A stretch of 64,000 nt of DNA, taken from contig JAHDYR010000067.1 in NCBI GenBank assembly GCA_019828565.1, positions 106,722-170,721 of the forward strand. The letters are read 5' to 3'. The stretch is from Carpediemonas membranifera BICM (lineage: Eukaryota > Protista > Fornicata). This document shows positions 22,397-64,000 of this stretch, one piece after another (the stretch's first letter is position 1; each line of letters begins with the position of its first letter). The position numbers were made by a program, and so were the translations under genes. Under the pieces are notes generated by a model. That model had not been told where the DNA came from. It saw only the letters and a list, made by a program, of their open reading frames with translations, and searched no databases.

Positions 22397-22506
22397 TGTG
22401 GTCAGTCCTGGACACAAGGGAACCAATAAAGACTTTAGAGAGAATACTGCCATATCCTGCACCAAATGTGCAGGATAATACCTGTTGTGACCTGAGTCAC
22501 ACCACA
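22397..22506 (-). repeat. 3' LTR of outer element
   Basis: Identical to 55889-55998; TG..CA termini; PPT at 22507-22516. Confidence 0.92.
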
Positions 22507-35341: not shown

Positions 35342-37290
35342 TTAGTTCTTACGTCTCCTAATCTTCACCTGGGTCGGCTTTGAGACCTTCCGCAAAGTTG
35401 CATGTCGACCCATCAACTGTATCACGTAGTTGATGTCGAGCCTGGCGCACTCCGCCCTAAAACTCTCCAGCGCTCTACTCTGATCGCCATCGAAGGGACG
35501 CCGCACTGTCAATGCATTGCCCTTCTCGTTACGGTAAATGTGCGTGATCATCTTCTCATCAATGTTGACAAGCATGGTCGGCTTCCCTGTCATCGAAGTC
35601 CACACTCTGATTGCTTCAACGCATGCCCATCTCGTCACTGTCCCGTCACTATTGACGTGCCCAGGAAACAGCTCATCCAGAAGCTCTATCTCTGTCATCT
35701 TTGAGAATACGGCCATGGTCCTTGCGTGGGCGAGGAGCGTCTGGCGGTAAGCTGTCGCCTCATCCTCAGCCTTGAGCTTCTGCGACAAGGGCAATTTGCG
35801 TCTGAACGCAGTAAATGTTCTCAGACCCGACATCATCATCAGGCAGTGAATGATGCAGTTCCCATAACCCAGGGTCGGATACGTAGGCCAACCTGAACTC
35901 GGAAGCCTTGTCGTGATGATCATGTCGAATGCCACAGTTCGGTTGTAGCGGGTTGGGTCAGACCTGGCGTTGACCACTCTTCCGCTCTCCTCGGTTTCAC
36001 CCTCCTCCTCTGCCCCACCCTCCTCGTCTGACTCGGCCTTCTCTTCCTCCTGCTCCTCCTCTGACTTACTCTTGGCCGGAGAGTGCTGTGCGATGATATC
36101 CTTCATCTCAGGCGTAAAGTTGAGGTCTATGGGGTCTGCCAGGTCATTCGGAGCGGTTGCTTGTGCAGACGCTGAGCAAACATCCTCGTCGTCGCCGGAG
36201 TTGCCGCCCTCGAGGTCGCCAAAGTGCAGCTCCTCCATCAACTCATCCGCCACTGGCTCCTCTTCCTCCTCTGACTCGACCTCCTCCACTGGCTCCTCTT
36301 CCTCCTCTGACTCCTCCTCCGAGTCCTCTGGCCTGGCCTTCTCGGGCGTGATGATGAGGGCCTTGCGCTTCACAGACATGGCTGCCTGCGCCTCGTCCGT
36401 ATCGCGTCGGGGACAGGAAGTCCTGGAGACTGTGCCAGACTGTGGCGGGATGGGGCTGCATGGGAGTGATGCATCCATGGACTTGTCAGCGTCATAGGCT
36501 GCCTCTCGCTCAGCCTGCTGCTGCAGAAGGCGTCGATGCAGCGTGATGACTTCCTCACTCTTTGCCGTCAAGCTCTTCCTCAACTGCTTGACTCTCTTCT
36601 TGTATCCTCGAACAATTTTGTGATAGTAATCGATGATAGCGCCAGTACCTGGGGGGAGCAGGGGCGTACCTTCTCCCGCGGGGGTCTCCAACCATTCCAG
36701 GGCGATGATGTACTCTTCGAAGTACGAGCGGCAGGAGTGCTTCATGTAAGCAAGGTCTGCCTCCTTGCTGCGCACCCTGGCAACCATTGCTGTGACATGG
36801 TCGCGCACAAGCGCGTTGGTGGATGTCGCGTTGCGCCACGCCCGAACCTTGACACTCAGCGCCTCTTTTTCGATACGCGCGCCCTCATTCTCCTTGGCAT
36901 ACTCAGCCCTCTTGGAGTTCTTGAAGGCTGTGACAGCGGCCGACTCAAACGCCTTCATCTCCTTCTCCGTGAAGGTTGCCTCGATGTTCTCGTTCGAGGT
37001 CTTATCCTGCACCTGCTGAGACAGCAATGCCTCGAGTTCTGCCTTCTTCTCGCCCTGAATCTCGAAATATGAGCACAGGTGGTTAAAGTTGATCCCTATA
37101 TAAACATTTGCACCAATTACGTACCGTTCTTGACGACTATATCGAAGATATCGTTCTCGTCGAGCAATTTGTCCCGAAGAACGGCACTCTTCGCCTTGTT
37201 TGTCTTCTTCTCCTTGAATTCGGTGATAACGGCCTCAATCACATCATCTGAGGTGCTCTCGATCCACTCGTGAAGGAATTCGAACGTCAT
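35342..37290 (-). CDS. coiled-coil + acidic + C-terminal OTU-like cysteine protease (intron 37096-37124)
   Basis: PTLGYGNCIIHC, W-x-loop (RWACVEAIRVW), IQLMGRHATL; 29-nt GTACGT..ATAG intron joins the 37117-37389 ORF in frame. Confidence 0.72.
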
Positions 37291-38404: not shown

Positions 38405-38405
38405 G

Positions 38406-39794: not shown

Positions 39795-41229
39795 ATGGCG
39801 AGTGATTATCAACTGGATGCAGAGGCTGAGCGGCGTAACTAGCCTGCCAGGGTCCGTGTACACAGTATGTGTCTTGGCCAAGCTTGACTTCGTCGGTTGG
39901 CCGAAAAAGCATAAACTGCACGGGTCCAGGTCGGCAACCGTTGCCGACCTGGAAGCCGCTCCTTGGGCGTTGAAGAACAGAAGAGAAAGCGATCAGCGAT
40001 GCTTTTATGCAGTATTAAGCAGGTTGTGCGCGTCAAATGTCCGGTAATGCATTCGTCACCATCTAATCAACATCAACTCTTTTTCTCGGCAATGCAGATG
40101 AGAATGCCCGTCACTAAAGGATGATTTGGTACTGAATAAACATTATAATGAGACTGGAATGCTTGTGGACACGAAAACAGCAATGACAACATCGGGAGCA
40201 AGACAAGAAGATGATTCAGATTTATGAGGGAGAGGACGCCAGGGATGACGGCGCCAGGGATGAGGCGCCAGGATGAGGGCGCCAGGATTACCTTAAGCTC
40301 TGCCGACCTGGTGGCTTTACAAAAAGCTCAGGATGAGGATGGTCCAGCTCCACGACCAGCGTAATCCCGATGGGGGTCGACACGGGGAGGGTGAGTCTGA
40401 CGATGAGGCGCTGTTTGACGAGACAGCTGGCGAGGCAGAGATGCCGGAGACCGCAGTGGAGGGCGAGTTTGACGATGAGGCCGGGTTGGAGATGCTGGAA
40501 GGAGAGTGGGAGGATGAGGAGAGTTCAGACAGCGATGCCGAGGATAGCCTCGTCGACAACCTGTCATTTGTTCAGTCACAACAGGTTGAGTGTGATATGT
40601 CTGAGAGAGATACCGATGAGGGTGTCCGTAGCGGGGCCAATGGAAGTGGGCTCGCTCCGCTCTATGACGCTATGAAGACCAGGGAGCCCAGCAGACGCAT
40701 TCGCCTTCGCCGCTATCACGAGAGCGAGTCAGACTTGGGCAGCAGCAGCGACAGCGAGGACGGGATGCCGAAGCTGCCCGTTGAGGCCTTTGAGCACATC
40801 CGTGATGCCGGGATGACAACTGTGAGGCTGACGAGGGCCGAGTATGACGACGTGATGGAGAAGAGAGAGCAGGAAAAGCACCAGAAGTAAATGGCGAGTG
40901 ATTATCAACTGGATGCAGAGGCTGAGCGGCGTAACTAGCCTGCCAGGGTCCGTGTACACAGTATGTGTCTTGGCTAAGCTTGACTTCGTCGGTTGGCCGA
41001 AAAAGCATAAACTGCACGGGTCCAGGTCGGCAACCGTTGCCGACCTGGAAGCCGCTCCTTGGGCGTTGAAGAACAGAAGAGAAAGCGATCAGCGATGCTT
41101 TTATGCAGTATTAAGCAGGTTGTGCGCGTCAAATGTCCGGTAATGCATTCGTCACCATCTAATCAACATCAACTCTTTTTCTCGGCAATGCAGAGGAGAA
41201 TGCCCGTCACTAAAGGATGATTTGGTACT
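39221..41229. repeat. block C: inverted-orientation copies of the 1096-bp unit
   Basis: Reverse complement of block B units. Confidence 0.92.
40333..40890 (+). CDS. 185-aa acidic protein, copy 5
   Basis: Repeat-unit ORF. Confidence 0.6.
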   Translation: MRMVQLHDQRNPDGGRHGEGESDDEALFDETAGEAEMPETAVEGEFDDEAGLEMLEGEWEDEESSDSDAEDSLVDNLSFVQSQQVECDMSERDTDEGVRSGANGSGLAPLYDAMKTREPSRRIRLRRYHESESDLGSSSDSEDGMPKLPVEAFEHIRDAGMTTVRLTRAEYDDVMEKREQEKHQK

Positions 41230-41514
41230 AACAGGCTTTAATAAGCATGTCAAGCCTGTGATCACGATAACAGCCTTCAATAACTACATCAAGGCAATAC
41301 ATCAAGAAGATTGTTTAAAGAGACGGCGGGGAGCAAGATGCAGGGAGAGCGGCAGGGAAACGAAGGCATGGGGACAGGAGCCCGAGAAGAGCGCCTGGAG
41401 AACGGTGAGGAAGAACGGCGGGGAAGAGCAGCCGGGCGCATGGTACACACATCTGTCATCATGTGGCATCAACATTGCCACAGTGGTCAACTCAATAACA
41501 AGCAATGTCTTCAT

Positions 41515-42797
41515 TTACTCACTGTTCTGGATCACCAATTCGTACGACGAGTAACAGTCGGGACAGAGCCGAATCTTGGGAATCGACTTGCCACAGATGA
41601 CAATCTTCAGCAGCTCCATCTGTACGCAGTTGGCAGAGTTACAGAACCAGTGCCCGCACTGCCTACAGTGCACGGCTGAGTCGTTGCGTCGGCATGCGTA
41701 ACACTTCTTCTCATTGAGGCAATAGCTACACGTGTATTTCCAGCGACCCTTAGTGGACTCGGCCCAGTTCTTGTTCTTTCCAGTCTTAGGCCGGGGAGGG
41801 ACACAGCGTGAGTTGTCGTGGAAGTTCACTTTGCATTCCTGGCAAGTCACAAACTTTGACGTCACGCGATTGTCGATCCAGTCCAGACTGTGGCAATGGC
41901 CGCAACAGAAACAAAGCAGCCTATTCTGAATGTCGAGAATCGAGAAAGAATCATCACCGACCTCAGACACATCGTCATCGTTGTCCCCTTGGCTGGCCAG
42001 ACGTGCCTCCACGGTGGCGAGCCTCTGATCGACACTCATCGCGACACGGTGAACATCGTGCAGCACAATCGACTCGCGAGGCGCTTGAGGGGAAGCTGGA
42101 GAGGGAACCGAAGTGGGACCGGACGATGAGTGCAGGAAAGGCTCACTTTTCACGCAAAGCTCTTGCTTCACGTGTGTAAGGGCGGGGGTGGCAGGGTTGG
42201 GGATTTCAACTGTTCTGCACTTGCCCACAAATCTCTCCGGGTCATTGATATCGGGCACACAGAGATTAAAGTCTCGGGAGTCGAGATTATCTGGCACAGG
42301 AATATTGAGTCTCGACAGGACGGATCTGATCGCGCTGGTTAGCTCCGAACGGACTGGGCGAGGGAGCTCTTGCAGAGAGCATGGACAACCTTGGGTTTCC
42401 CGTCAGATATGGCCACAGTAACCCCCATCGTCTCAGCCCAATCTCGGACGTTCTTCGCAACAACCCTTCCCATCGAGACGCCAGGTTTCAACTTCAGCTC
42501 ATCGAGGAAGTCCGGTGTTTCGGAGCACGGCTGAAGAAACGACACGATGATGTGGTTGAACGCATTTCCGAGCTTTTTGATGGACAGGCCAGTTGGGTCT
42601 GAGTCAAAGACGTCAAACGCAAACGTGAAGAAGGCCTTAAGCATGCCCATCATGAGAATTGACCGGCAAGTACTCAAAGCGGTTGTGTTCCACTTCGTCA
42701 TCGGTCTCGATCTCTTAGAAACTGCCTTAACTGCATGATCGTCCGCCATGTTCTCATTTACGGCCGCGCGCTTCGTTTCTAGCTCCGTTTCTGTCAT
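41515..42797 (-). CDS. PHD finger + FYVE/ADD-like zinc finger protein (two ORFs joined by a short intron or frameshift near 42340)
   Basis: CFCC..FVTCQECKVNFHDNSRC..WKYTCSYC (C4HC3) followed by CYAC..HCRQCGHWFCNSANC..RLCPDC. Confidence 0.7.
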
Positions 42798-42987
42798 TCC
42801 AGAGTAGATTTTCTACTAAAAATTGGCATTGTTACAACCAATCATTAACATTAATAGAGAAGGAGAATAAAGACTCACCAGCCCGCGGCCAATCGTGACT
42901 CAGGTTCGCATCAGACGTCGACAGAGACGAGTTAAACATGAGGCTGGGCAATTGTCTTCTGAGCTAATCCTTAACCTTTCAAAGAGG

Positions 42988-45510
42988 ATGCTAATACCGA
43001 AGTGGACGCTATTACACGGCACTATTTATGCTCCTCAAGAGGATACTGGCATCAACACCATTCTATGCAGCGTGTACCTTTCCATTGACTCAGATAACGT
43101 CAGCACACATCGGTTTCGTGTTTCCAAAGCTCCCCAACGCCGTGAGTTCGTCCAGGTTGTTCAAGAGTTGCTCAGTGCAGGATATATATGTCGCCAGGAT
43201 GTTTCAAAGCAGCTGTACCCCTCTCCGACTGCCACATCTATCGCTGCGGAGAAGAGGAATCACACGACTTACCCAAGAGCCTACGTGAAGCATACATCCG
43301 CAGTTGACACTCTCGCAGCCGAGAATGAGTGTCTACGGAAGCGTCTGGCCGACACGGAGCGCCTGATTCAACTAACGAACCAGCTCAAGTCCATCACAAA
43401 CGGATACAATGCCGTTAACGACGAGATCCGCATAATGAACTCTCTTGCAGGTAGGCTTAACCTTGATATTGTGTGGATATCTCCTGTTACCTCGAAGATC
43501 AAGTCTCTCGCGTGTAATATCCAGAATATGGAGGAGATAGAATCACTTCTCCAATCTGACACCGCTTGGAGGAGATTTATCCGCAGTCACGTTCCCGCCA
43601 ACATTCAGCACAGGGTAACGGCGAGAAGGTCTGATCAGGCCAATCAGGAATATGAGCTCGACCTCATCACCCATGTCGAAGCTCCTCTTGATGTTGTACG
43701 ATCATCTATTCAGGGCGACTCGGCCCATGCAGAGCACGTTGCAGGAAAAATCGTCGTCTTCTATGACTCAGAGCAGGACCGTGAGACTCACTATAGCATC
43801 ATGAAAGAGCAAGGCCTCACCCCTCGGATGCAGACGAGTACAAGATATACCCATGTATATCATGCATCATTTGATATCATGGAGTATTATCGCCAAGCGG
43901 TTGCATTCCCCGTATCGCTGGAGACGTCACGATCCGGGCGCAAGAGTGCAGCTCGGACATTAAGACGACAGAGTCATTCCGCTGAGACGGGGACGATCCC
44001 ACTCGTGTTAGAGGTGTGGGTCGATGCGTGGAGAGGTCTGACAACCGCTGTTAAGATTCGTTTCCTCGACGACTCCCACAAAGTCTTTCCGTCTGGTGCG
44101 ACTCCTCCTTTCCGGATTCTTGAATACAACGGCCCAGAAAGTCTCATCACTGAGCACTTTGCCTTCATTGAACAATCCATCGAGAGCACACACCGCGAGG
44201 TGCTGGAAGTCAGGAACACGGGTCTCCTCTGCCGAGTAACGCGTGTCTTTATTATCGCAGACCATCCAGCCATGTCCAAGGTTTGCGGGGCACTCATTGG
44301 AGGCAATTACCCCTCGCCATTCAGTTCCGTTCATTCGAAGAACAAGGGCTGGAGTCCCTTTGGTCGCACCCCGCGCTGCACCTTGGCAGATATCCTGCTG
44401 GCGAAGCATAAGTCACAGTTCGACACTGTTATGGACAGAGAGGCCAAATGGGGATCCTTCTATAACCATCAGAAGAAGTGCATCGCTCCCACTTTGTTTG
44501 AGACGTCGACTGCATCGCTGCCCAGAGACTGCGTCTTCTTATTCCCTCCGATCATGCATGTCAGTCATGACTTTGTGTCGTTGATTCATGCCATGTGCCG
44601 CATGTTCAAGCCAGAGCCAATTGACCCAGACAGCGACCCTCGTCAAATTAAGGAGGTGAAGGCAAGGAACGCGATGCTAGCGAATCTGGCGTCGTTTGAG
44701 CCACCCAGCCGTACGACGGGCTGCAACGAGCAAGTCAAGGGGAGAAAGATGATAGCATCGATTGGACTTAAGCTGCATCGTGCGTTCCCGCCACCCGTGC
44801 AGTCATTATTCATACTCGCTGCATACCTCCAGGAGCACTACTATTCCCACGAGGATGTAACTGAGAACATGGTCGTGTGGCATCGCTTGACAGCACTTCT
44901 CGTGCACCTCTTCTCTGTGACCATGTGTCTTAGCACATCTAACACGGTTGCCCCAGACATTCCGATCCGTCAACCATCTGCGACTCCCGATACGGCGCCG
45001 TGTGTTGATACACTTCACGGATTGGCGCGTATTGCCGCGCTGCCGGAGATACAAGCGAAGACTCGGGCCTCCTTTGGTCGAGTCATCGAAGAGTGCTTTG
45101 AACGTGATTTCATTGGGAATCAGGAGAGTCGAGTGCGATTGCGTCAGAACCAGACGGTTCTTGAGAGCACTATTCTGAAGGAGCAGGTTGAGTTGCTGTT
45201 CAGATGCCTTCGTGGAGTGATTTCCTACGGAAGACGCGAAACAGATGTCCCACCCCAGTCACCCCTGAAACTTATGCGCATTCATAAGTGTTGTAAGGAT
45301 GCCAATTGGTGGCTTCGTATCCGGAGTGTGCATTCTAAGACGCTGACAGCGACTGAGTGCCAAAAAGCTGCACATGGTGTTTACGAAGGAAGTCAACGGC
45401 CTATGGCGCACTGTCTTGTCGAAAGCAGACTGTAGCTTTGACTCAGACTGGCTGGATGTTCCCATTCACGAGCAGGGACACACTCTTGATGTTTGCATAT
45501 GCAAGAGATA
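42988..45510 (+). CDS. DDE transposase, CMC (CACTA/Mirage/Chapaev)/Transib-RAG1-like; C-terminus probably extends by frameshift to 45510
   Basis: Putative triad EVWVD / IIADHPA..G..GGNYP / IEECFERDF, plus PPIMH; largest ORF inside the TIRs. Confidence 0.72.
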
Positions 45511-45973: not shown

Positions 45974-46584
45974 AGTGCAGGCTAATACCCGTCCTTAAAC
46001 TGTGGGATCAGCCGCTGGGTAAATATACTGAGAAAAAACCATATAGCTGAGTTCACTGTCTTGTGCTGAATACGGTGGCGCCATTTATTTCTCTGAATCG
46101 TCAAGTTTTGTCAGCGTTGACCGCGCAAGACCGGTCGTCCTTACGCGATGTCACCAACACCATCATATTCTTCCCCCTGACATTCTACGTGTCCCCCAGT
46201 CTGGATTCGTGGTCTGCAATATTCACAGAGATATTCGCCTTCTCTTTCGCGAATTTGACTCTGATCAAGTCGAAAAACGAAAAAACGACCATATCTCGAA
46301 ATCTACACGTTGGAATCGGTACCAGAGTGATTTTGCGCATATGTACATCCCGTCAGCAGTCTGCAAAATCACTCTCGTACCGATTCCAACGTGTCGATTT
46401 TGAGATATTGCTCGTTTCATCCTTTTGCCTTAACCTGCGTCGCAAAGAAGTCGAAATCAGTGGTTAGACCGCACTGGACCTCTTGCAGGCTCTCTGCATA
46501 CGCGCTTTAGTATGCAATGAAGGTATTCATTTTCCCGTAAATTGTTTAAATTCAATGAATACTTCATTTTCGGTCCGGAAGAAA

Positions 46585-48250: not shown

Positions 48251-48372
48251 TGTTGTGGGTCCTACCCAAAGTTACACAGATTTACGTTATATTTAATAGT
48301 CAAGGAGTTTCTCCTCGACACCCTTGTGTCGAGTCTTCTCCTCAGTAAAAGTTCAACACCCATTGAACCACA
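48251..48372 (+). repeat. 5' LTR of chromovirus
   Basis: TGTTG...CCACA identical to 54074-54195. Confidence 0.96.
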
Positions 48373-48393
48373 GTACTAGTACTACCAAAACAT

Positions 48394-51300
48394 ATGGGTA
48401 CGGAAACTTACAGAAGCCTGAAGAAGAATCCGCCTCTCCTGAAGAAGTCCTCCATGGACGCTCTTTTGGACTTTGCGGATAACCTCCACGATCATCGCGC
48501 CTTAGGCGGCCGCGATGATGTTATTGACCTCATCGAGCCTAGCATAGCAGAGCTAGCAGGCCTTAACGACGACGAAGAGGTTGAAGACACTCCTCTCCTG
48601 CTCTCCGCGAAGCTCCGTAAGAAACGTCGTGTCGCAGCCCAAGATGAACGAGTCCTCAAGCGCCTCGGTGCTGCCCTTCGACCTTCTCGCCTGAGCATGC
48701 GTCTACAGCTCTTCCGAGTCCCCGCCAAGTCCTTCGAGCCTGATGAGGTTGCTCGAGTGAACCGCCGATTCAATCTGCTCTTGAAGCTCGTTCAACCCGA
48801 AGATCCCGAGGACGTCTTGAAGGAGACGTACAGCCGCTGCTTCAAGTTCCCCAACAACAGTCGCATCATGTATCGAGTCAGAGAATCAACGGAGCGCAAG
48901 GATCTCAAGGACGCAATGGCTGATGTCCTCGTCATGTCACGCGACCTCAAGGAGTCCAAGGAGATGATCGCTTCCTTCGGCGCTGCGGGGGTCTCCGACT
49001 CACAGCGTACCAACACCACGCCCTCCCATACACGGCACACGGGGAGCGGTCCGAAGAACCCTCATCGACGCGAGCCTGACCGCACGAACGTAGCCCCCTC
49101 AAAAGGCAAGCCGATCGACAAGCCAAGCACGAGAAGAAGCCATTCGTGTGCTTCAACTGCGGTAAGGTCGGTCACTCCGCTCGCCGATGCCCTGCTCCGA
49201 AGACAACCTGTTCCAAGTGCCAGAAGCCGGGCCACCGAGCTGAATTCTGCCGTTCTGAGGTAAATTCAGCTCGTTGTGTGTTTTCTCTCGGTTCCCGTCA
49301 GAGTGTCCTCCCCTCCGTCAAGGCTAGCATTCTTAAGCAAGTCGTGTCCGTCCTGTTCGACTCGGGCGCTGACTGCGCAACCATTGACCCCAAGCTCTGC
49401 CACGGCAAGGCAGTGAAGTGGATCTCACACGAGAAGACACTTATCGAGACAGTGGGCGGCGTCAGAGAGGCCGATGGTCAGGTATCCTTCCGCCTCGTCT
49501 TAGCGCCCTCGCCATTCACTCCGCGCGGATGCTCTATCACTATTAAGGCCTACGTCCTGTCGACCGCTTTCGATGTATGCCTGGGTTACCCTCAGATGGT
49601 GGAGATCGGCCTTCTCCCTTCGTTGTCTGAGCCTACCAGCGAGCTCGCAGCCAGCGACGAACCACCTACATTCGAGAAGTACGTCGCGCAAGCCAGAGCC
49701 ATGTCCTCTTCCTTTTCTCAGAGGCAGGCCGACATCCTCAAGCGTTACGCCCGGACATTCGTGGACCGTACCGAGCCAAGCCGGCTCGAACCGTATGATT
49801 TGGTCCTCAAGGGCGACAGAGTCGTACACATTCGGCCGTACTATGTTCCCCCGCCGAAAGTCCCGATCATTCAAGAGCACATTAATACGCTCCTGGCAAA
49901 GCGCTACATCGAGGCATGCCAGTCTCAATACGCGAGCCCTACCATCATAGTTCCAAAGAAGGGGGGAAAGACGCGTTTTGTCGTCGACTTCCGCGAGATC
50001 AATCAACTAACGGAACCATTCGACTACCCCATCCCTCGCATAGACGAAGTTCTCACTCAACTGTCCGGAAAGTCTGTGTTCGCTACCCTAGACTTGTCAG
50101 CAGGATACCATCAGATCCCTCTTACTGAACGGTGCCGTCACCTAACCGCCTTCCGTACTGTTTTTGGTCAATACCAATATACACGGATGCCCTTCGGCTT
50201 ACGTAACGCCGGAGCGTACTTCCAGAGGGCGATGGAAGACGGGTTCAAGGGTCTGGTGGGCTCCGCCTGTGTCATATACATTGATGACATCATCGTCATG
50301 GGTGCGGATGAGGACGAGTACCTGGGAAACCTCGAAAAAGTCATGCAACGCGTTGACAAGCTTAACCTTCAGCTCGGCCGAGATAAGTGCCAGTTCGGTC
50401 GGCAAGAGGTCGAGTTCCTCGGGTGGATCATATCCCAAGGCAGCGTGAAGATCTCACCCCAGCGGACCGAAGATATCGCGAACCTCAAGCTGTCTTCATC
50501 CACGAAGGGCATGCAGGGTCTCAACGGATTCCTCAACTATTTCCGCGATTACATACCCAACTTCGCGGTCCGAGCTAAGCCTCTGCTAGACGCCATGTCC
50601 GGTCGGCAGACCCCCTCGAGACGTTCTTCAGAAGTCGCTGGACGATCTGAAACAAGCTTTATGTTCGGCCGACGCTCTAGCCATGTTCGACGCGACTAAG
50701 CCTCACACTGTCATGACTGACGCATCCGATGTCGGGTACGGAGCAGTCTTACTCCAAGAGGGCCGACCAGTTTGCTATATGTCGCGTGCGTTCAACGACG
50801 TCCAGTCACGCTGGTGTACCGGTGAGAAAGAAGCCTACGCTATCGTGGCAGCGTTACAACGATGGCGCAAGTTCCTGTGCTGGGAGAGCTTTACTATTCT
50901 CACGGATCACCGGAACCTACTCTATATGTACCGGTCCACCAACGCCAAGGTCCGCCGGTGGGCTGATTCGATCGCCGATTTAGATTTCACCCTACAGCAC
51001 ATCGCCGGTCTGGACAACGGTGGAGCCGACGGTCTCTCGAGAGTATTCTCCATGCAACAGGCGTCGAGGGATCAGGTATCCCGCGCTCATCTCACAGCAG
51101 GAGCTCATCTGTCTCGCCGGATGACAACCGAGCAACTTAGGGCCGACGGTTTGTCTGTCTCCCGTCAAGTCGTAGACGACGTGATTACCGCGTGTCCAGA
51201 GTGCCAAGTCTTGGCCCGCCCTCCTGTTGATACGCCCGACGGCCTGCATACAGCTGTAGACCTCCCGTTCCGGCGTGTGGCCATTGACACCATGGGTCCG

Positions 51301-52330
51301 CTACCGACGGTCAACGGCCTGTCCTACGTGACAGTAATGATCGACATGTGCTCCCGCTGGACAGAGCTAGTCCCGGTCAACAGCACCTCAGCCAAAGACG
51401 CAGCCAACGCATTGGTCAACACCTGGATTCTACGATACGGATGCCCCGAAGTCGTCCAATCGGATGGGGGCTCAGAGTTCAAAAACGCTCTGTTCAAACG
51501 CCTCTCCGAAGAGATGGGGTTCGACGTCCACATAACGACAGCATACCATCCCCAGAGCAACGGTGTCGTCGAACGCGCGAACAAGGAGGTCGAACGCATC
51601 CTCAGAGCCAGGAAGCTGGAGTTAAGGAATAACGATTGGGTAGCACACCTACCAGTCGCCCAATTCTTGGTCAACTCAATGCCCAGGATCCCGACCCGGT
51701 TGACTCCGGCCGAGATCATGTTTGGCGCCAATTTATCAATACCGTCATCGATCTATATCACGGATGCCGCCTCGGCTGGTCCGCCACAGTCGAAGCTAGC
51801 CGCAGCCGATGCCGCCATCCAACTCGCCAAAGCAAGGATTAGAGCCATGCGCGAAGACGCTCTCGCAAAGGCAACCTCATCGAGAAGCGAGATATTGAGC
51901 CGTTTCGTGCTGGTCAAATACTACCCAAGACCACCGAGCAAGCTAGCCCCGGGCTGGCGCGGCCCCATGAGGCGTGTCGCAGCCGTCAAACGTGATGGTG
52001 TTGTCGTCGCATATGAGGTCCAAGACCTCAGTCAGTCAGCGGACGGTCCAACTATCAAGGTAGACGCGGCACGTGTGCGAAGATTTGACCCAGGCAAGCT
52101 CTCGGAGCAACAGATCTATGACCTCGCAGCCGCTTCCGTCGATGAGTGGCATGTCGAGCGCATCTCACGCTCTAGAGGCTCGGGCCCCAAGTCAAGGCGC
52201 GAGTACCTCGTACACTGGGTCGGATTCGAGGGATTCAGAGGCTTCATTCGAACCTTATTCGCACGTCAAAGATTTGGAAGCCCTCGATACATATTTGAAG
52301 TCTGACCAAGCCAAGCGTGACGGTCTGTAA
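48394..52330 (+). CDS. Gag-Pol polyprotein (three single-base frameshifts near 49124, 50613, 52231)
   Basis: CCHC knuckles CFNCGKVGHSARRC, protease FDSGA, RT LDLSAGYHQI / MPFGL / YIDD, RNase H TDAS, integrase H..H..C..C, D..D..E, GWRGP, chromodomain EYLVHWVGF..SFEP. Confidence 0.93.
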
Positions 52331-52372
52331 AACTTCTCAACATCGAAGCTATATCCTCGAGGAACAAACGAT

Positions 52373-53266
52373 TTATTCAGAGCTAGATTCCTCGTCTTCC
52401 GTCTCCTCCGTGTCCGTCAGCTCGACCAACCAAGTCGGGTCAGCGTGGCGCTCAAGGGCGTTCTCAGCCAAGTACTCTCGCACACACCGGACAAGGCAGA
52501 GATCAGCGTTGAGGGACACGATGCTGAGTCCCGAGTATCCGTCATACTGCAGGATCAACACAAAAGACCCGGGACCACAAGTCGTCTTCAGATACTCGTG
52601 ACGGACTACGCACGTGACAGTGTAGTAGCGGTCCGGATCAGAGACCTGAAGCGGCTCCCAGTGAGCCTCATCGGCAATGGCGGGCAGGTAGCCGTCGTGG
52701 CACAAGCGGCTGACCAGGGTTGCCCAGAAGTCGTTGGGAGCCGGGATGCGCCTGCTGATGCCGTAGACAGCGACACGGAAGTAGTCCGGTGCGAGGACGA
52801 GGACCAACAGGCGGTTAAGATATCCGCGCGCTGTAGTGTCCGACTTGACCCCGCCGGCAGTCCGCACAGCCGCCACGAGAGCTGCAGAGTAGTGACCATT
52901 ACCGGGTGAAGACCCACCCAGCGTGATGTCGCGGCCCCGGATCGCGGCCGACACGATGTCGCCATCGGTCAAGCGCTTCCTGCCGAGCTTGAGGTGGGCC
53001 CTCACACCGGCAAGCGCGACCTGGCAGTGAGCCACGAGAGCCAAGACCTGCTGGGTCAGCTTCACGTCCTGCACTACGGCTGCGTCGTTCAGACGACCTT
53101 GCTCAATAGCGTCAAAGATTCGCTGGAGCGGCAGCTCGATGGAGTTGGTGTAACCTTCCAGGCGTCGGGCAACCTCGGCCTTGATGTCGTGGGGCATCAG
53201 AGTCGTCATCGTCAGGGTGCGAGTGATGCGTTCTGAGGCTTGCACGCGGTGACTATATAACCTCAC
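52373..53266 (-). CDS. extra antisense ORF of the chromovirus, unknown function
   Basis: Intact 297-codon frame between pol and 3' LTR, not overlapping pol. Confidence 0.65.
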   Translation of the reverse strand: MRLYSHRVQASERITRTLTMTTLMPHDIKAEVARRLEGYTNSIELPLQRIFDAIEQGRLNDAAVVQDVKLTQQVLALVAHCQVALAGVRAHLKLGRKRLTDGDIVSAAIRGRDITLGGSSPGNGHYSAALVAAVRTAGGVKSDTTARGYLNRLLVLVLAPDYFRVAVYGISRRIPAPNDFWATLVSRLCHDGYLPAIADEAHWEPLQVSDPDRYYTVTCVVRHEYLKTTCGPGSFVLILQYDGYSGLSIVSLNADLCLVRCVREYLAENALERHADPTWLVELTDTEETEDEESSSE

Positions 53267-54063
53267 GGTTGATGTTTGTTACTTACAGATTGTCGGTGAC
53301 CATGCGCTTGCGTCCACGATACTTCTGAGCGCGAAGGGAACGACAAACGGACGTATGGGCAACAATAAGTGGCCTAGCCAGATCGTCATCACCAAGTTCG
53401 GTGATTTTTGGCACGAATTTCCTTCAGAACGGCCTCTACGGCTGTGTTGTCCGACATCAAATGAGTTGACGGCGACATATCCTGCACATTTCTCGGAAAC
53501 GGTCGAAGGAACAACTAACAAGGTCATCTTAGTCTTCAAGCATGCATTTATTGTCGGTAATAAGGCATTAGGAGCTTCCTAGTGCTCCTTCCGGTCAGTT
53601 TGATGTTGTTATTCAAGTACAGTTGGACGCAGAAAATTAGAAGCCTCAGAACTCCTCAACGGAGCCGAATTGGAGCTTCTAAGTACGTTTTTCGGCGTCT
53701 GTGTGATTATGAGCGATAAGGGCTCAGCATTGGCAGTGTTTGCTAGAGCAATCGTTCTTGGCCTTCGAATTACATGGAATGGCATATAACACGTATAAGG
53801 TTTGTGAAGACGGCCTAGGAAGGCCGTGGAGGGGCAGTGGTAAGCCTTTCCGTCACGTTTCACCATTTTTGAAACAGAGCTCACATAGCGGTACCGCAGT
53901 TAGATCATGATACCATCATTTTGATTTCGTTCAGCTAGATGCGAAAGCACTCAGGCCATGGGGTTGCCAGCCCTATGAGTCACCGTTGGCGGTCGGGTGG
54001 CACCGTCCAGGCCTTTGGTGAAATGCTGACGTCAAGTCTCTCTGTCATGCCTATACCAGGCAT

Positions 54064-54073
54064 GGAGGGGCAG
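54064..54073 (+). other. polypurine tract of chromovirus
   Basis: GGAGGGGCAG abutting 3' LTR. Confidence 0.88.
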
Positions 54074-54195
54074 TGTTGTGGGTCCTACCCAAAGTTACAC
54101 AGATTTACGTTATATTTAATAGTCAAGGAGTTTCTCCTCGACACCCTTGTGTCGAGTCTTCTCCTCAGTAAAAGTTCAACACCCATTGAACCACA
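54074..54195 (+). repeat. 3' LTR of chromovirus
   Basis: Identical to 5' LTR. Confidence 0.96.
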
Positions 54196-55888
54196 GGGTG
54201 CCAGAGGCTGCTCGCCTCTATTGGCCTGAAGGTGTTGTACTGAGAGGATGGGCGCATCGCTGGAGGACGGGCCGACATGTGTTCGAGCTGCAACATGCTC
54301 GCGATACCCGTGAGTTGCTCGTCACGGGATGAGGTGATAATACGACCATACTAGACTGGTCGTGGTTTCGGTACAAGTCTCACAGAGGAAGGGACCCGTG
54401 AAACTACTATCTAAACTCGTTGAAGAGCTGCTATGCGCGGTAACGCTGCCCCTCCGCGGCTCTGAAGTACTTTGTGTTGTCGCCGCGTTGTTGTCTGATG
54501 ACTGTTGGTCTCGTGTCTACTAAATTGACTTCAAGCAAGGATGCCGGTCATGATAAGTGGAAGCTAAGTAATTACCTTACCTGAGTTTGGCGGGTAGCAC
54601 AGCTAGCCTTGACAAAAGTGCGAGCCATTGTTGCTCAAATGGAGATGCTCGCGCCATGGGGTGAACGATGGCAAGCGCGATACAGTTGACAGCAGATGGG
54701 GTGTCTGCCCAGGCTGTCGCGTACTGAGGATGTGGATGAGCAGCGGTCGAGCTTATCGTTGCTCTATGACGCTGGTTGCCCCTGACAGGGAATTGCGGAG
54801 ACGGTGGCGTGCTAGCTCTATTGGTTCATGCCGTGTTGCTGTACGTGGAAGGGACCTGCAAGCTGGCGAGTTCGCACATGTTCGGGGATAACTGGAGAGC
54901 AAACCTTGAAGCTGCTCAATACGGGTGCTGTTTCAGCACTGTGTGGATAGAAGGATATAACTGGCCGTCTAGGACCCACTGCTAGCAGTTACGTGCTCCA
55001 CATGCTCTGCTGAGCATTTGTTAGGAAGGTATACATGGCCTCATGTAGACATATAAATAGTGTGGATCGCTCCCACGACTGTAGGAACCGAGCTTGGTGT
55101 CCCCAGATGGGTCGTTACCTCTTTCGGTTTTTCATCGTCGATGATGGTAGTTGCCTGTCTGGCTTGGGCCATTGGCCCTGTGCCACGCTTGCTCATGGTC
55201 TGCTGGATGACCCGAATGATGTATGACTTGCTCTGGGCGCATGTGGCCAAGCTGCTACTTGCTACTCTCTAGGTAGCTCTGGATGATGGTTGGGGACGAT
55301 GATTCTGGAGGTCTACGTTGGTCAAAGTCGTGCGTGGGTCTGTCAGTGAGTCTACTGGGGTCACTGCCCCTTCTTGGCTTCTTCTCGCACTGTCTCGGGG
55401 TGTTCGATTTGGCTGGACGTGGAAGTGGCTGGCTCCTCGGCGTGGTTTTGGTTTGTTTTGCCTTTTGGCGGCTTTGGTGGTGCTTATTCCTGGTGCTATC
55501 TGCACTGTATCGGCTTGTGCTTGGCCTGGCCACTGGTCTCGTTGCTGGTCTCGGTCGATTGTCCTGAAGGAGCTTGATTGGCGCTCCAGAGCTGGTATTG
55601 CGGTGCTGTATCGTTTGTTGGAGCTTATTGAAGCTTGGTTACTGGTATTGGCCTGTTGTTTGCTTGTATGCTATAGTGCATTGGTGGAAGTTGATGGTCT
55701 TGTTGAACTAAACGCTCTAGACTTGTTGTTGCTTGCGAATTTCAGTTGAACTGTCGACACCGCGGAGACATTTGCATTGCGCTAACGGAAGAAATTGGTT
55801 CTGGTGAAAATGTCAATTGATGTTGCTTATATTGATTCTCCTGCGCCAGGACCGTTGAGCTCATCTCCTCCGGAAGAAATGATATCAT

Positions 55889-55998
55889 TGTGGTCAGTCC
55901 TGGACACAAGGGAACCAATAAAGACTTTAGAGAGAATACTGCCATATCCTGCACCAAATGTGCAGGATAATACCTGTTGTGACCTGAGTCACACCACA
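55889..55998 (-). repeat. 5' LTR of outer element
   Basis: Identical to 22397-22506. Confidence 0.92.
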
Positions 55999-56471
55999 AC
56001 GGGAACCCCGAGCTCCGCGATGATGACGGGAACCCCGAGCTCCGCGATGATGACGGGAACCCCGAGCTCCGCCGTGATGACGGGAACCCCGAGCTCCGCG
56101 ATGATGATGGCAACCCCGAGCTCCGCGATGATGACGGGAACCCCGAGCTCCGCCATGCCGCTGTGAACGGTTTCCACAGGCCTCAAGATGAGGTGGATCT
56201 CCGTCGCATGCCAGAACAACGCGTTCCCGAGCAGAATATGGAAGAAAATATGGCAGAAAACGGCATGCAACACGAGGATGACAGCTATGTGACCTGGAGA
56301 GACTTCCGTGCTTTCCAGGATGAGGTTCGTGGCCAATTTGCTGAGGTTCATGGCCAATTTGCTGAGGTTCATGGCCAATTTGCTGAGGTTCGTGGCGACA
56401 TTCGCCAGCTCAACGCCACAATCGAAGAGCTGCCTGGCAGGATTCTCGCCATGATCCACAATCGGGATTAA
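55999..56471 (+). pseudogene. 3' half of RDDDGNPE-repeat gene, with FAEVHGQ heptad repeats
   Basis: 24-bp repeats continue to ~56153, frame runs to stop at 56471; 21-bp repeats near 56321-56394. Confidence 0.75.
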
Positions 56472-57574
56472 TCATAAGAGTAAACTTCTGTACATAGTCG
56501 TTGTCTTTGCAAGCACGAGTTCTGTGGCACATCCGTGCATTTTGTGATTTTCCATTAATCACGTAAATTACTGGCTTATGCCGACAGCCCTGCCGGGAGG
56601 AGCTCCAGCGAGTTGAACAGTCCCAGCTTGGCGCACCTCTTGTCATACACCAACAGGGTAGCGGACATGAGGGCATCAGCCATGGTAAGGGCGATCATGC
56701 GGGCAGGTGTGGGTTCGTGAGAACAAAGCTTTACAAAGAATAGAGCTCGACACCCATGTGTCGAGCTGGACGACTCAAGACTATTAAATAATCTATTGAT
56801 GAACCAACACTTCCCTCCCATGCTCCGGTAGAGCATCAAAAAACTCAACACTATTATGAAGGGTGTGCTAGGTGCTTGGTCCGGGTGAATTGCCCAGATA
56901 CAAGCTCCAGTAACCGTCGCTTCCATGGGGACTCGCCATGGAGCCGGAGTTGGCAATGGACTAAGCCCTATTGCCTGAACCGTTGTGAGCTCGGGACTTT
57001 CGAGTTCACCGGATACCCGTTGACCAAACTGGCTATAGAAACCCTGAGTCTTATGCCCGGCGTGATGTCAAGTCACGTTTCTGAGATATGCTTACCTCAC
57101 TACCAAATCTAAATTACCTAATATTATCTGATCAAATCTTGCGTGGTACCACTGTATTAGCGCGCTATGTTATGGGTATCCTTACCTGGGGTCCTGCCCC
57201 TCTTGAAAGTCTTTGAAACATACCCGACGATTCTGAAAGGGTCAAATGGCGCACTTTTAGGTGCCATCGATGTCCCCATGTCAATTCTTACCAGAGGTTG
57301 GTTACATTCCGCCTAATCTTACACGGCGTTCAAAAAACGGGTTAAGAGGCTCCAATTCCTTCTCGTTCGCGAGATATGGCACTTTTTCGTTTTGCACCGC
57401 CGGAAACACTTTTTGGATCCCGAAAACGCGGCTATATTGAATAACAACATCAGTTCCACCATGTAAACAACTCTATGTTCCACTTCTGAACAGCATTGTT
57501 GCGTAACCATTGCGTTTCATCGATTTCGCATTTTTTGCTTTCTGGAAAGTCGACTTTCTAGACGATCACAGCTC

Positions 57575-58219
57575 ATGGGGGATTTCGACGCCGCTGTGGA
57601 AACTATTCTAAATCGTCTTACGACTAACACTTCGAGAATGCAATTTTGCCGTCTCCTCCGTCGCCATATCTCTGAAACTGGTTCCTACCTCGAGCTGTTC
57701 ACCCCTTACCAGCCGCGACGTGCTCCTAGGCGCCAAAACGTCCCTAATGTCCCAGAGGAACTTGCTGGCGCCGTAACCAGTTCTGCATCTGACAGCGAGA
57801 GCGTTAACGCCGTCGACCTACGCTACCTTCCGGCTTCTCCTGACCCAACCGACAATGAGTCTGACTCCGAGTCGGACGACACCCCGCCATCCCTCTCTGG
57901 CTACGTGGAACTCGTCACCCGGCAGGCAGTCAGCTACTACTGGAACTCTCCCCGGACTGAGTTACTGCTGCTCACCGACAACCGGCTGCACTCTTACACC
58001 CGCGCTTCCGCTGCAGTGCACTCGCATGACGCCGGCGCTGATCTCTGCCGTGACGCTATCGTACTCCAGGCGATGTCGGCTTACCTCTCCATACGTCGCG
58101 ATTCGACTGATGCTGCCATCGTTTCAGCCTACCTCACTGCTGTTCGAGACAACATACTGTCCAGGGTTCAGGAATTTCCCTTATTGGGTAGGGGAATTTC
58201 CTCGGGGGAAAGCCCCTAG
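57575..58219 (+). pseudogene. hypothetical gene truncated by insertion of the second giant transposon at 58153
   Basis: Last ~22 codons read through the CATACTGT terminus. Confidence 0.5.
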
Positions 58220-58652
58220 CATTTCGACTCGGTAAGAAAAAAAATAAATCAACAACGAGCTGTATTCATAATCTATAAATGAGGTTGAATACATGCCTAC
58301 ACATGAGGACTACTCATGCGTAGTTTTGAGCTTTAAATCCTGCTAGAAAAAAGTAACATAGGGACAATTATTCCTTGGGAGTTCAGACTCAAAAATCGGG
58401 CTGGGGGAGGAAATGGTCCATAAGTACGCCTTATGGGTCGCTTCCTCCTCTCTGCCCTTTTTATTGACTTCTGATTTGCCAGATTTGACACATGTTCGAG
58501 GTGAGTCTTAGATTACTCAAAATGGCCTCCTGATTCAGCAGATAGACTCAAAATTTCACAATTCGTACTCAAAACCAATTTCAACAGACGTCTGTTGCAA
58601 AATCTGCCAAAAACGCACTTTAAAGTCATTTTTGCAACAGACGTCTGTGGAA

Positions 58653-59905
58653 ATGGTCTTTAAGCTCTCCGCTGCCGATTTGACGCAACTACACAAGACT
58701 AACTACAGTAATACGTACATTGCCGACATTAGCGGGGTCAAAACTGTCGTCAAGGTCGATAACTGTATGACACTTCGCCTGACACACGAAAATACGATAC
58801 TTCAGGCAATGAAAAGCCCATTTATTGTTACAATCGTCGATGTGGGCTTTGTTGACAGCGATCAAGCGTTTGCCACTCGCTTTGTTGACCATATGTCGTG
58901 GCGAGACGTTCTGGCACTACCAGTACCGGATCAATGTCGCTACTTGCGGCACTTACTGTTAGCTCTCAGCCATGTGCATGAGAATGGATTCATCCACGGC
59001 GACATCAAGCCCGACAACTACCTTTTCAACCGAGAAGACGGTGGATTACTCATTGACTTCGGCTCTGCCATCAAAATAGAGGCTCCTACTGGGATTAACA
59101 GGTATATGGGACAAGACATGAGAGGGACACCTGGTTTTATCCCCCCGAGCTTCGTGCCGACGAACTCAGTCGGAAATCGAAGCATTGTACAGTAGCTATG
59201 CGGGAACCACAGAATTTGAACCCCTTCCAGGCTTCCAGGAACACCACAACCAGAAACACCAACATGCACACAGTTGATGCGGCATACGACATCTTTTCCT
59301 GCGGCGTTATCGTCCTCATGATGGCATTGCGACTGGATAAGTCTCCATTTCGATCTGTGAGAGTGGATGGTGGCAAGCCAAGTAACCCAGACGAGCATAT
59401 TGGCGCTCTATATAACATGGCGTACTTCTACGGCCGCGAAATCACGATACACAGCAAGAAGAAGAATGCAGCCCGTGGTTTGATGATCAATCCGACTCTC
59501 TGCACGAGAGGAAGCCCTCCGACACAGTATAGGAGCCTTTATGACCTTGCAATGGGGATGCTCAGCTATAATCCGGAGGATAGACCAACAGCTTTGATGT
59601 GCGCTGAACATCTCAACGATATCGCCGCCCTAGCAGCAACGTTCGCATCAACACCACTGATGATCAACGACCAGGTGACAATCTCTCAGGAAACGCTCGC
59701 TGCCGCCAAACTCACCGTTGAAGCACTTCGAGAAACCCGATTTGCTGGCCGATGCATTGCATGTGGCATGCCGGTTCACGATAATCGAACAATAACTTGC
59801 AAGACACACCACCAAGATTACAGAAGCATCATGAACCCCCACACAAAGAGAAGAGGACGAGTTTGGAGGGTTCATCGTGATCTATCATTGATTATTGATA
59901 TGTAA
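58653..59905 (+). CDS. Ser/Thr protein kinase, Cdc7/CMGC-like motifs (frameshift in C-run 59141-59146)
   Basis: TVVK, HEN, HGDIKPDNYLFN, DFG, RGTPGFIPP(E after +1 C), YDIFSCGVI, PEDRPTA; C-terminal CxxC..C..H. Confidence 0.85.
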
Positions 59906-60345: not shown

Positions 60346-62027
60346 TTAATCACTCTCATCATCTTTTTGTCTACTTGTGGATGACGGAGCGCCTTCCTGT
60401 ATTTGCGCTTTTCTTTTGATACCCTCTGGGAGACTGACAAGTTCCGCATGGTCGTCCTGGAGCAGAATAAAGTGGGTAATGCCATGTCTGGAACAGAACA
60501 CCTGGAAATTCTCACAACGATCAGCAGCTGAGTCGCCAGAAGGGTACAAACCCCAAAACTGGTGACCATGTGTGAACAATATCACTGTAGAATTATTACC
60601 GTTGTTGCACACCATGATGACATTACGCATGTAGATCATGGAAAACTCTCGCACAGCATCATCGGTAAGCCAGCCCATCTTGGAAAACAGTTCTGCCTTA
60701 GCGGAATCCTCCGTCAGAGCCGTCCGCTTCACCCGGCTTTCCACCAGCTCGGCACGCAAAGCCATGGCTGCCTCAAGATCTGTTCTGTGGGTCAGGGGTG
60801 GTCATATCCCGGAAATGGCCGTCCCTAATCATGCAACAGCAGTGCGCAACACAGCTGCCATCACGGTGTGTCGAGTATTTCCTCCATGACTTCAACCCAT
60901 TCACAATTTCCTCAACGAAGGACTGTGGCTGACCGCTGGTGCCGATTGGAATCTCTTTCTTCTCAATCATATTGTTGATGTGAGACTCAATGGCCACAGA
61001 TGACTCGTGTTCAGACTTGATCAAGAGCAGAGAGCGAAAGTCGACGATCTTAGCAGTGGAATCGAAGTTCGGGTACGCAGGCCGGTAAACCTTGTTAAGC
61101 AAAGGATAACAACGCGGCGGGAGTCTTGCGTCTTCCTCCGATACGATCTTCGCTTTTGCACAACCGTCAGGTCTTGCGATAATGACTCTTCGCTTCATGT
61201 ACGAGAGCTTGGACATCCAGAACCAGAATTGCGCGATCTCATGGAGGTGATCTGGCTGAGTCATGATTCTGATGAGCCACGTGGCGTCATGGGCGGCAAG
61301 TTCGACGGCGGGTAGCTCATCTGGTGTCAAAAGCACCACACACCGTTGCATTGTGAACTTGAACTTGCCAGAATACAACTGAAAGATCGGCCGTGGGTCA
61401 CGGGCGGAAGACTGGCAGGCGGCAATATACACACCCATGATTCGGGCGAACTTGCAGACATGACTCTCATAATTCTTCAGAATTGCCTCGATGAAGTCGA
61501 AGGCAGTTGTCCAGATGGCTGGTATCGTGCGGGCATCGACCACAAACCGACCATCAGAGTCCGAGTGACCAGTGATAATGAAAAAAAGTCTCATAGTCAC
61601 CATACAGCTTGCCGAATTCCTTGATTTTCGCCTCAAAATCGTCCTCGTTCTCGAACTGGGCCGTCTCGATAACCGTATACTCGCTATGCATTGCCGCAAA
61701 GATCTGACGAATGCGTTCTGCGTGCCCTCCAATGGAGACAGATTCATCAATCGAAAACTGCCTGCTATCTCCAGCAACGAACCCATAGGTTGGCTCGAAC
61801 ACGATGAGGACACGTGTATTCTTCAGCGCCAGTGCAGTACGGGTGCACTTGTGACGTCGGGATGGCGAGGGAAAACCGACGTTGCGTGTTTCGCTACTGA
61901 TGTCCCCACAGACACATTCAAACAGCTTTGATCCATCCAGATATCGATTTCTCCACCCCATTGCATTGAAAAATGTCTGATCGTCGTTCATGACGCCAAT
62001 GCCAAATTGAGGGTGAGAAAATGGCAT
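60346..62027 (-). CDS. caspase-like (clan CD) protease fused to OTU-like protease (frameshifts near 61584 and 60796)
   Basis: RVLIVFE..HAERIRQIF..FFIITGHS..YIAACQS; then RDGSCVAHC..GWLTDDAVREF..ILLQDDHAELV. Confidence 0.68.
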
Positions 62028-62088
62028 CGCACTTTAAAGCAGCTTTATGTGAGAAATGTATTGCATATAATTCTGCATTCAGAAGACG

Positions 62089-62971
62089 ATGGCTAGAACA
62101 AAGCAAACGGCTCGCCGGCCTACGCAAGGTGGAAAGGCGCCTCGCAAGCAGTTAGCAGCGATAGCTGCGCGGAGAGCAAATACTTCGTCGTACCGCACCT
62201 ACAAGCCGTTGTCTCAGGCCGCGTTGGAGAATTGCACGGCAGTCCTGCAAAAGGCTGATGCTGATATCCAAGAAACTATTCTGTCGTGCATCAAAGAAGA
62301 CGGAGGCGCACAACTTCAAGCAGATGGTCAAGAATTCAACACGAGCTGGTTTCCGACTTGCATTCAACACTGAGTCCGAGTCTGTCCACATGAACCCATC
62401 GAGGAAGGACGAGGTGGCAGCGCGGGCAGAAGCTGCTTACCAATCAGCGCTGCATGCCTTCCGCAGCGTTGACCCTGAGACTGCTGCGACAGAAGATATG
62501 AAGACACTGCTTGACACCTTAGCGGTTGCTCTTGACGCAACGCCAGATGTGCCACATGCTCGCCTGGATCCTGAAGAACAGCGTCGGTTCCTGAAGCTGA
62601 AGGATACGAAGAAATTCTCCAAGTACTGCCTTCCTCGCAGTGACGAGAAGTTTTTCTCGACCAATCTTCGCGCTGCCTTGCGCGAACACCTGGCGAAGGT
62701 GTTTCCAAACCTCCCTTGGAACAAGATTGTCTCCTGCTTCTCCCCTGAAGCGATCAATGCTGATTTCTTTATCCTGTCCACGAGCAATGCCACCTACGAC
62801 GAAGCTTGCCTGACAATGCCGTCTGATGAGAGAAAGAAGCTTCGCAACCATCTTTCCATGACTGAAGAACGGCAGATTGCTCGTCAAGAGATGGAGGTTG
62901 GGATTTACCAGTTTTTAAAGAGAGCTCGGTATGTTCTCTACGGTGTAAAAGATGCAATTGTTGACCATTGA
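62089..62971 (+). CDS. divergent histone H3-derived protein (K9R, K27R), apparent frameshift near 62226
   Basis: MARTKQTARRPTQGGKAPRKQLAAIAARR; removing one G gives YKPLSQAALRIARQSCKRLMLISKKLFCR, aligning gap-free to H3 [29 protein letters not shown]. Confidence 0.78.
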
Positions 62972-62987: not shown

Positions 62988-63804
62988 CTAAACCCCACTA
63001 TTCGAAGGCGTCTCTGCGGGCTGAAGAGACATAAAGGTTAAAAACAGTTTAAGGAACTCGTCCAACGTCTTCGCATTGTGCGTCATGGCCACCTTGTCCT
63101 TCTTCGTCAACCTCGATTTGGTACCCTTTCTCTTCACAGTCGTCTTCTTCTTCTTAGAAGGCTCCCAGCTCCCCATTGGCGCATGCTTTTTCTTAGCTTC
63201 TTCTGCTCTAATCTGTACTTCTCCTCCTCCGTCATGTCTGCTTCCTTTTTTTCTTTTGCCTTCGCCTTCTTCTTCGACTTCATTACATCTAACTTCTTCG
63301 CCTTCTCTGCATCCTCCTGGACCACGCGAGAAATTGAGTGCTTCACGTCCTTCGGTACATCACGATTCCTCGCATGCTTAACCACGACAAAGACATTATC
63401 GTCAGTGCCGCCACCTTCAAGGATGACCTTGTCCTTTGGGATCTTGCTGGTGGCAACCAAGAAGCAGATCGGCTTCTTATCCACCTTGAATAGGGCAAAC
63501 CTGCAGTTGCCAGCAGCCGAATGATGGCAAAAGCTTGTTGACGCATGCTTCATCAGGAGTCATGAGGGTGCAGCTGTGACGATAGCTGAATCCGAGAAGG
63601 CTGATCGCTAAGAACACCCTTGGCAATCCCGAGCACTTCTCCCTCATCAACATCGCCAGCCGTGACCAAACCATACATCATGTCATCGCCCTTTGACACC
63701 ATGCATGTGCTGCACTTCAGAGAAATGAGCGATTGGCCGTCAAGCTCGACAATTTGGTCATCATCGAAAGGCAAGGCGTCTATCTTCATCGCGGCTTCGC
63801 CCAT
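62988..63804 (-). CDS. divergent SET-domain protein with Lys-rich tail (frameshifts; 5' end may lie further upstream)
   Basis: YGLVTAGDVDEGEVLGIAKG, SFCHHSAAGNC, FLVATSKIPK; in-frame upstream WNCQLC may be the end of a PHD finger. Confidence 0.62.
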
Positions 63805-64000
63805 GTCCGCCCAATTTGCATAGACACGACGCGCAAGCTCTTCCGGAAAGCAATCGCAGCAAAGTTGACAGTTCCACTTTCTTGCTGCATTCTACGCAGT
63901 TTATACCAGCAGTTTATACGCAGCAATGACACAGCACCAAGAGCGTGGCACACAACCCTTCAATGACCCATGTAAGGTTGGGTGGGTCTTATGTCAGGCT

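Follow-up and report, generated by a model that had tools for sequence, protein, structure and literature searches.

A candidate caspase-fold protease joined to an OTU-like domain on a transposon-like element of Carpediemonas membranifera, divergent from a histone H3-tail mimic

Transposon-encoded OTU and Ulp1 domains, the SET accessory genes of Plavaka elements, and the anti-silencing protein VANC are already known. Ginger1 transposases and Helitrons carry OTU domains, and Mutator carries Ulp1 (PMC2836005). Like the gene described here, these are examples of ubiquitin-like-protein proteases on eukaryotic DNA transposons, but in the available portion of that paper it is the transposase or Rep/Hel protein that carries the protease as a fusion, unlike the protease reported here, and the word "caspase" occurs 0 times in the paper. 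Red-algal Plavaka/EnSpm elements have accessory genes, PAG1-3, that include a SET domain and are proposed to act on chromatin (bioRxiv 10.1101/2025.02.11.637652), and fungal TET/JBP genes are chromatin accessory genes of Plavaka/EnSpm (CMCT) elements (PMC12730594). Plavaka/EnSpm elements resemble the elements studied here in their CA..TG ends, 2-5-bp target duplications, and several accessory genes including SET. However, the cargo in the accessible sections of these sources is a DNA methylase-SET fusion, a ParB-2OG oxygenase, or TET, with no protease or H3-tail mimic described there. VANC of VANDAL elements counters silencing through sequence-specific loss of DNA methylation (PMC5735166). It is a precedent for transposon-encoded anti-silencing, although the proteins are unrelated to those reported here. 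The accessible text of the red-algal preprint names VANDAL elements as the sole transposons with a known ability to modify their own sequence. A literature search at the level of titles and abstract openings found neither a protein that combines a caspase fold with an OTU domain nor a transposon-encoded H3-tail mimic beside a protease.

The locus described here lies in a 64,000-nucleotide stretch of contig JAHDYR010000067.1 from Carpediemonas membranifera BICM (the window). One coding path on the minus strand, from 62027 to 60346, contains a His/Cys dyad and an OTU-type Cys box in a single stop-free frame (Table 1). The reading that we favor, by somewhat more than even chances, is that this is a transposon cargo gene in which a predicted zinc module, a predicted caspase-fold protease, and a predicted OTU deubiquitinase are joined in one chain that would probably act in chromatin anti-silencing.

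Table 1. Features of the protease-OTU locus and its surroundings (positions in the window)
Feature	Position	Strand	Description
Whole gene	60346..62027	-	Putative zinc module, clan-CD-like protease, and OTU-like domain; ~559 codons across two +1 breaks
CxC...HxC module (C38, C40, H59, C61)	61845..61916	-	Columns nearly invariant in 12-sequence alignment
Caspase-hemoglobinase (clan CD)-like domain	61100..61814	-	His154 at 61567-61565, Cys204 at 61417-61415
Break 1	61581..61587	-	+1 shift at T7 run directly upstream of His strand
Protease/OTU junction	60890..61100	-	Protease family region ends, then short in-frame link; frame B open, other two frames with stops
OTU-like domain	60420..60890	-	DGSC box (Cys 60853), Trp motif GW (60672), DHAE (His 60450, Glu two residues on)
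Break 2	60775..60801	-	+1 shift within OTU-like domain, probably at C4 run 60798-60795
Spacer	62028..62088	.	61 bp, AT-rich, separates divergent ATGs
H3-tail mimic gene	62089..62971	+	H3 tail on unrelated body; one +1 break
SET-like cargo gene	62988..63891	-	In pieces, Cys-rich front, PF00856 only at E 0.087
Ser/Thr kinase cargo gene	58653..59905	+	One homopolymer break; best PDB match Cdc7 (E 8e-10), narrowly before S6K1
Element 2 left end	58153..58504	+	Starts AA|CATACTGT; 220-bp segment with 82% identity to matching segment of element 1, same 137-bp offset
Element 1	23921-46658		22.7 kb, complete; 74-bp inverted ends start CATACTGT, AA on both flanks
OTU-like paralog, unbroken	35342..35920	-	End of 630-codon ORF in related element 1

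The gene starts at an ATG at 62027 and stops at 60348-60346, which matches exactly the coordinates of the original prediction, made from the same DNA. It passes through three frames, designated A (62027 to ~61589), B (to ~60796), and C (to 60346). The A-B-C path has zero in-frame stops, and codon log-odds from a model trained on the other ORFs of the window favored it in 13 of 14 segments of 120 nt, the last segment being ambiguous. The IITGHS and IAACQS motifs named in the original prediction are both in frame B, with 50 residues between them. The DGSC box of the OTU-like domain is also in frame B, with no stop between the dyad and the box, and the W and H motifs of that domain are in frame C. 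With the dyad and the OTU Cys box together in stop-free frame B, the fusion holds whether or not either break is corrected. The codon bias, 11 unbroken homologs, and the unbroken paralog in the window together indicate a single gene.

It is extremely improbable that two separate genes were run together in the assembly, their boundary erased by compensating indels. Such an artifact might be suspected because the region is prone to indels and the homologs of the protease stand alone. However, ~60 nt would have to accommodate a stop that is now hidden, a new start, and a coincidence of frame, and frame B has no in-frame ATG from the point where the family match ends to the Cys box. The link between the two domains is only ~20 codons, in frame and coding-biased.

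The homologs are continuous across break 1, with frame A matched by 10 of the 11 and frame B by all 11, and the read-through aligns over break 2 to the unbroken paralog at 35342-35920 (E 3e-7, 24% identity, 181 columns). A 16-nt GT-AG intron at break 1 was considered and rejected because the homologs retain those residues. A gypsy element elsewhere in the window shows this +1 pattern too, within a C run of its pol gene, and one copy of a tandem unit that is >99% identical between copies has an extra C in a homopolymer run. The breaks in the protease-OTU gene thus resemble homopolymer slips. Because the gypsy element is broken even though its LTRs are identical at 123 of 123 bases, the pattern fits poor polishing of repeats, and the two one-base breaks are likely sequencing errors. 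They could instead be true slippage mutations in a dead element, in which case this copy would make no full protein. All four cargo genes visible in element 2 (the kinase, protease-OTU, H3-tail, and SET-like genes) are broken, and the compact eukaryotic host genes at 1-21.4 kb of the window, ahead of the repeat region, have long open frames. However, decay of this kind appears quite unlikely, given that the A-B-C path is free of in-frame stops, that the breaks are at homopolymer runs, and that a gypsy element with identical LTRs is broken in the same way.

The front part of the protein belongs to a family of stand-alone proteins. A HMMER scan of 1.84 billion representatives, in a library that keeps one protein per 50% cluster, gave 7 matches, 6 of them true homologs with E values of 2e-36 to 7e-11; the remaining one, P0030, was dropped as a chance match to a repeat protein. 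Inclusion of cluster members yielded 11 distinct homologs of 257-350 amino acids that are 22-33% identical along ~270 residues and end approximately where the OTU part starts. Two of the clusters are hypothetical proteins of C. membranifera, with 10 GenBank accessions (e.g., KAG9390148.1 and KAG9396835.1), and the other four are without named annotation. The multi-copy C. membranifera proteins and the four unnamed relatives share the invariant residues of the front domain but differ from it in having no OTU part. Neither domain nor the family was matched in Pfam, NCBIfam, PADLOC, PHROG, or PDB sequences. Word-indexed homolog searches returned no match, and pattern scans of viral, prokaryotic, and metagenome contigs and of plasmids returned no relatives.

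Proteases of clan CD have an alpha/beta sandwich fold, a strict P1 specificity, and a His-Cys dyad in which the His comes first and each residue follows a hydrophobic strand. In PF00656, PF20347, and legumain, as in the front domain here, the Cys follows the His by ~50 residues, and each ends a hydrophobic strand. All 12 of the aligned sequences share G153, H154, R195, C204, A240, and W250. The His/Cys spacing motif, which was defined post hoc, arose in 49 of 20000 shuffles. The family profile aligned with DUF6642 (PF20347) at a probability of 55% and E 1.2e-4 over 126 columns, with His and Cys in register. It also aligned with 50 bacterial PF00656 domains at E 0.005, again with the dyad in register, and 0 of 100 column shuffles scored as high. 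A trimmed version of the family reached only E 0.02 against DUF6642, and 3 of 100 shuffles were higher. There was no match between the family profile and CHAT (52 of 100 shuffles as high) and no alignment to an OTU control. The single sequence did not score above shuffles against C14, CHAT, or DUF6642 profiles, and the outcome of its glocal alignment depends on gap penalties. DUF6642 was also the best named match to frame B in the language-model Atlas (0.88), which is a lead only. The single-sequence AlphaFold model had a pLDDT of 33 and was without a Foldseek match; its strand-helix order fits clan CD at low confidence. The dyad, invariant in the family and in register with both DUF6642 and C14, bears out the clan-CD-type assignment of the original prediction, and on these sequence comparisons the front domain very probably has a clan-CD fold.

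The front domain also differs from the described clan CD families. It scores below every cut-off of those families; neither the read-through nor any of the 7 homolog-search matches reached the PF00656 gathering score, and it is therefore not a member of the caspase/metacaspase family. It has its own CxC...HxC module and R/W/EPxxGF motifs, and it is set apart by the OTU-like fusion and by its carriage on a eukaryotic transposon. The CxC...HxC module, which was absent from the original prediction, is likely to bind zinc. DUF6642 has an invariant HG and an invariant C, and weak in-register matches to caspase, legumain, and PF00656. Its own five best PDB matches are one caspase and four legumains, all below threshold. 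From sequence it looks like an unrecognized clan-CD protease family.

OTU domains are marked by a DG[NS]C Cys box, by a Trp motif, and by a C-terminal His with a polar or acidic residue two positions on. The rear domain has the corresponding motifs, and its C, W, and H are common to the paralog in element 1. In the Atlas, 19% of the members of the top cluster of that paralog carry PF02338 (0.91, with recognition just below the tool threshold). A profile of the two sequences matched a 25-sequence OTU profile at E 0.004 through the Cys box only (20 columns), above 150 of 150 shuffles; the OTU profile represents 25 of 33 loci, of which six were omitted by choice and two because of short frames. 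A custom OTU HMM run in HMMER failed to recognize the rear domain, as 529 of 2000 shuffles scored just as high. Nor did the domain reach the PF02338 gathering score. Its AlphaFold model had a pLDDT of 45, with a Wolbachia OTU at Foldseek rank 5 (E 0.058), a weak lead, and a wide structural search with this poor model gave no OTU among the 50 matches listed. The evidence is weaker than that for the front domain, but the DGSC/W/H motifs, the paralog alignment, and the Cys-box profile match agree with the earlier assignment of the domain as OTU-like, which is probably correct.

The fusion described in the original prediction stands for this locus, where the dyad and the OTU Cys box are in one stop-free frame, but it is not a trait of the family, in which 0 of 11 homologs have the OTU part. 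Because all 11 homologs lack that part, the fusion is to date seen only here. Comparison of the sequences suggests that two cargo genes that stand alone elsewhere were recently joined in frame. One possibility is that the joint is incidental, a small deletion having joined neighboring cargo genes in one element family, so that the domains would work independently and the joint would have no function. The anatomy would be the same as in the explanation that we favor and only the meaning of the joint would differ. The 11 of 11 stand-alone homologs, which end at about the start of the OTU part, are in keeping with this, as are the paralog of the OTU-like domain in element 1, which stands behind a different front region, and the shortness of the junction. 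With 0 of 11 homologs fused, nothing points to selection on the joint. However, the junction is stop-free, in frame, and coding-biased, and the gene has kept both catalytic sets, the His/Cys dyad and the OTU residues. Furthermore, relatives with the fusion may have escaped the search, as the library has a single representative for each 50% cluster. We regard a meaningless joint as unlikely.

The neighbor of the protease-OTU gene was originally described as an H3-like gene. Its N-terminal tail does match H3, but the resemblance is limited to the first ~30-40 residues (E 4e-7 to 9e-5 for the match over residues 1-40), and no histone fold was found beyond the tail in either frame. It is therefore an H3-tail mimic rather than a histone. 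An H3 alpha-N-like stretch that was considered in its second frame was unsupported. Scored against the H3 sequences that it matched, not against the H3 of the host, the mimic (62089-62190) keeps K4, K14, and K18 and has K9R, S10P, K23I, K27R, and S28A. Both ARKS silencing sites are gone as a result of K9R/S10P and K27R/S28A. The head-to-head layout that had been proposed, with 61 bp from ATG to ATG, agrees with the measured spacer. It is plausible, from the spacing, that the spacer is a bidirectional promoter, and the protease-OTU gene may be coexpressed with the H3-tail mimic. A host head-to-head gene pair in the window is also close, at ~20-220 bp depending on the start codon.

The protease-OTU gene sits between the left end of element 2 and the kinase, H3-tail, and SET-like genes, which upholds the earlier description of it as transposon cargo. 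Element 2 is represented in the window by its left end and 5.8 kb, its right end lying beyond the window, and no transposase was seen in those 5.8 kb. Elements of the CMCT clade (EnSpm/CACTA, Plavaka, and Transib) have 5'-CA..TG-3' ends and a 2-5-bp target duplication, according to the accessible part of PMC12730594. Element 1 has both features in its CA..TG inverted ends and AA flanks. The DDE transposases of the clade have C(2)C and H(3-4)H motifs. The ORF of element 1 at 42871-45435 looks by eye like a transposase whose C(2)C is degenerate, and it has no Pfam or PDB match. The element that carries the protease-OTU gene is likely a large, CACTA/Plavaka-like, CA..TG-ended, cut-and-paste transposon. 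Other ORFs of element 1 are OTU-like (35342-37234), SET-like and PHD-like by eye (26881-27565 and 41515-42402, respectively), and HEPN-like (26168-26671; PF18731, E 0.004).

Several other features of the repeat region deserve mention. Element 1 contains, at 27770-35158 and 39216-41312, an array of ~1.1-kb units that lie in both orientations, measure 1096 bp, and are 95-99.7% identical, and each unit contains the acidic 3' part of the ORF at 38382-39794. This arrangement is reminiscent of VANDAL and Plavaka elements and their tandem arrays. There are imperfect palindromes near the element ends, at 58578-58654, just upstream of the kinase ATG, and at 46274-46426. The Cdc7-like kinase at 58653-59905 is notable as a transposon-borne gene. 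The gypsy retrotransposon (48251-54196) has identical 123-bp LTRs and a GGGT target duplication. The end of its integrase is chromodomain-like, and an additional antisense ORF (52373-53278) belongs to no known family. A segment of 27-bp repeats in two distant copies (22294-22506 and 55889-56157) is probably another small mobile element. A 250-codon ORF at 57467-58219, with no Pfam match, enters the left end of element 2 and was likely truncated by its insertion.

The mechanism that we propose for the joined protein is tentative, at somewhat less than even chances, and its substrates are conjectural. The OTU part would deubiquitinate histones or proteins of the element. The clan-CD part would cleave an unstructured, basic substrate, for which the tail of H3 or that of the mimic is the most plausible candidate. 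Lacking K9 and K27, the mimic would be a decoy for the readers and writers of the H3 tail. This action on chromatin would protect the element from silencing. A stronger version, which we consider somewhat unlikely, is a chromatin eraser with two blades, built from a new clan-CD family with a zinc module and an OTU enzyme, in which the protease either clips host H3 tails or frees the decoy tail while the OTU part removes ubiquitin. The accessible part of a review of histone clipping names cathepsin L, MMP-2/9, and trypsin as the proteases and no clan-CD enzyme.

The protein might alternatively serve transposition or protein turnover rather than chromatin, through maturation or stabilization of a transposase or adjustment of DNA-repair factors. 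Such a role has been proposed for the OTU and Ulp1 domains of Ginger1 and Mutator transposases (PMC2836005, in the portion available), and nothing on substrates at this locus favors histones. However, the protease here is without a transposase fusion and has an H3-tail mimic and a SET-like gene as its neighbors, and SET-, PHD-, and OTU-like ORFs occur in element 1. These considerations make a role confined to transposition or turnover very unlikely.

Transposon counters to host silencing are understood in few cases, such as VANC. The cargo gene described here, with a proposed function in chromatin anti-silencing, offers concrete parts for extending these cases. These are a clan-CD-like, unannotated family that is expanded in a free-living metamonad, an OTU-like partner, and a copy of the H3 tail with arginine replacing two silencing lysines. 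If the protease cuts H3-type tails, histone clipping would be tied to transposon anti-silencing and a new sequence-specific protease would be gained. If the two-bladed eraser is true, the transposon would encode an anti-silencing system that works by histone clipping, and the protease would be a clan-CD histone protease.
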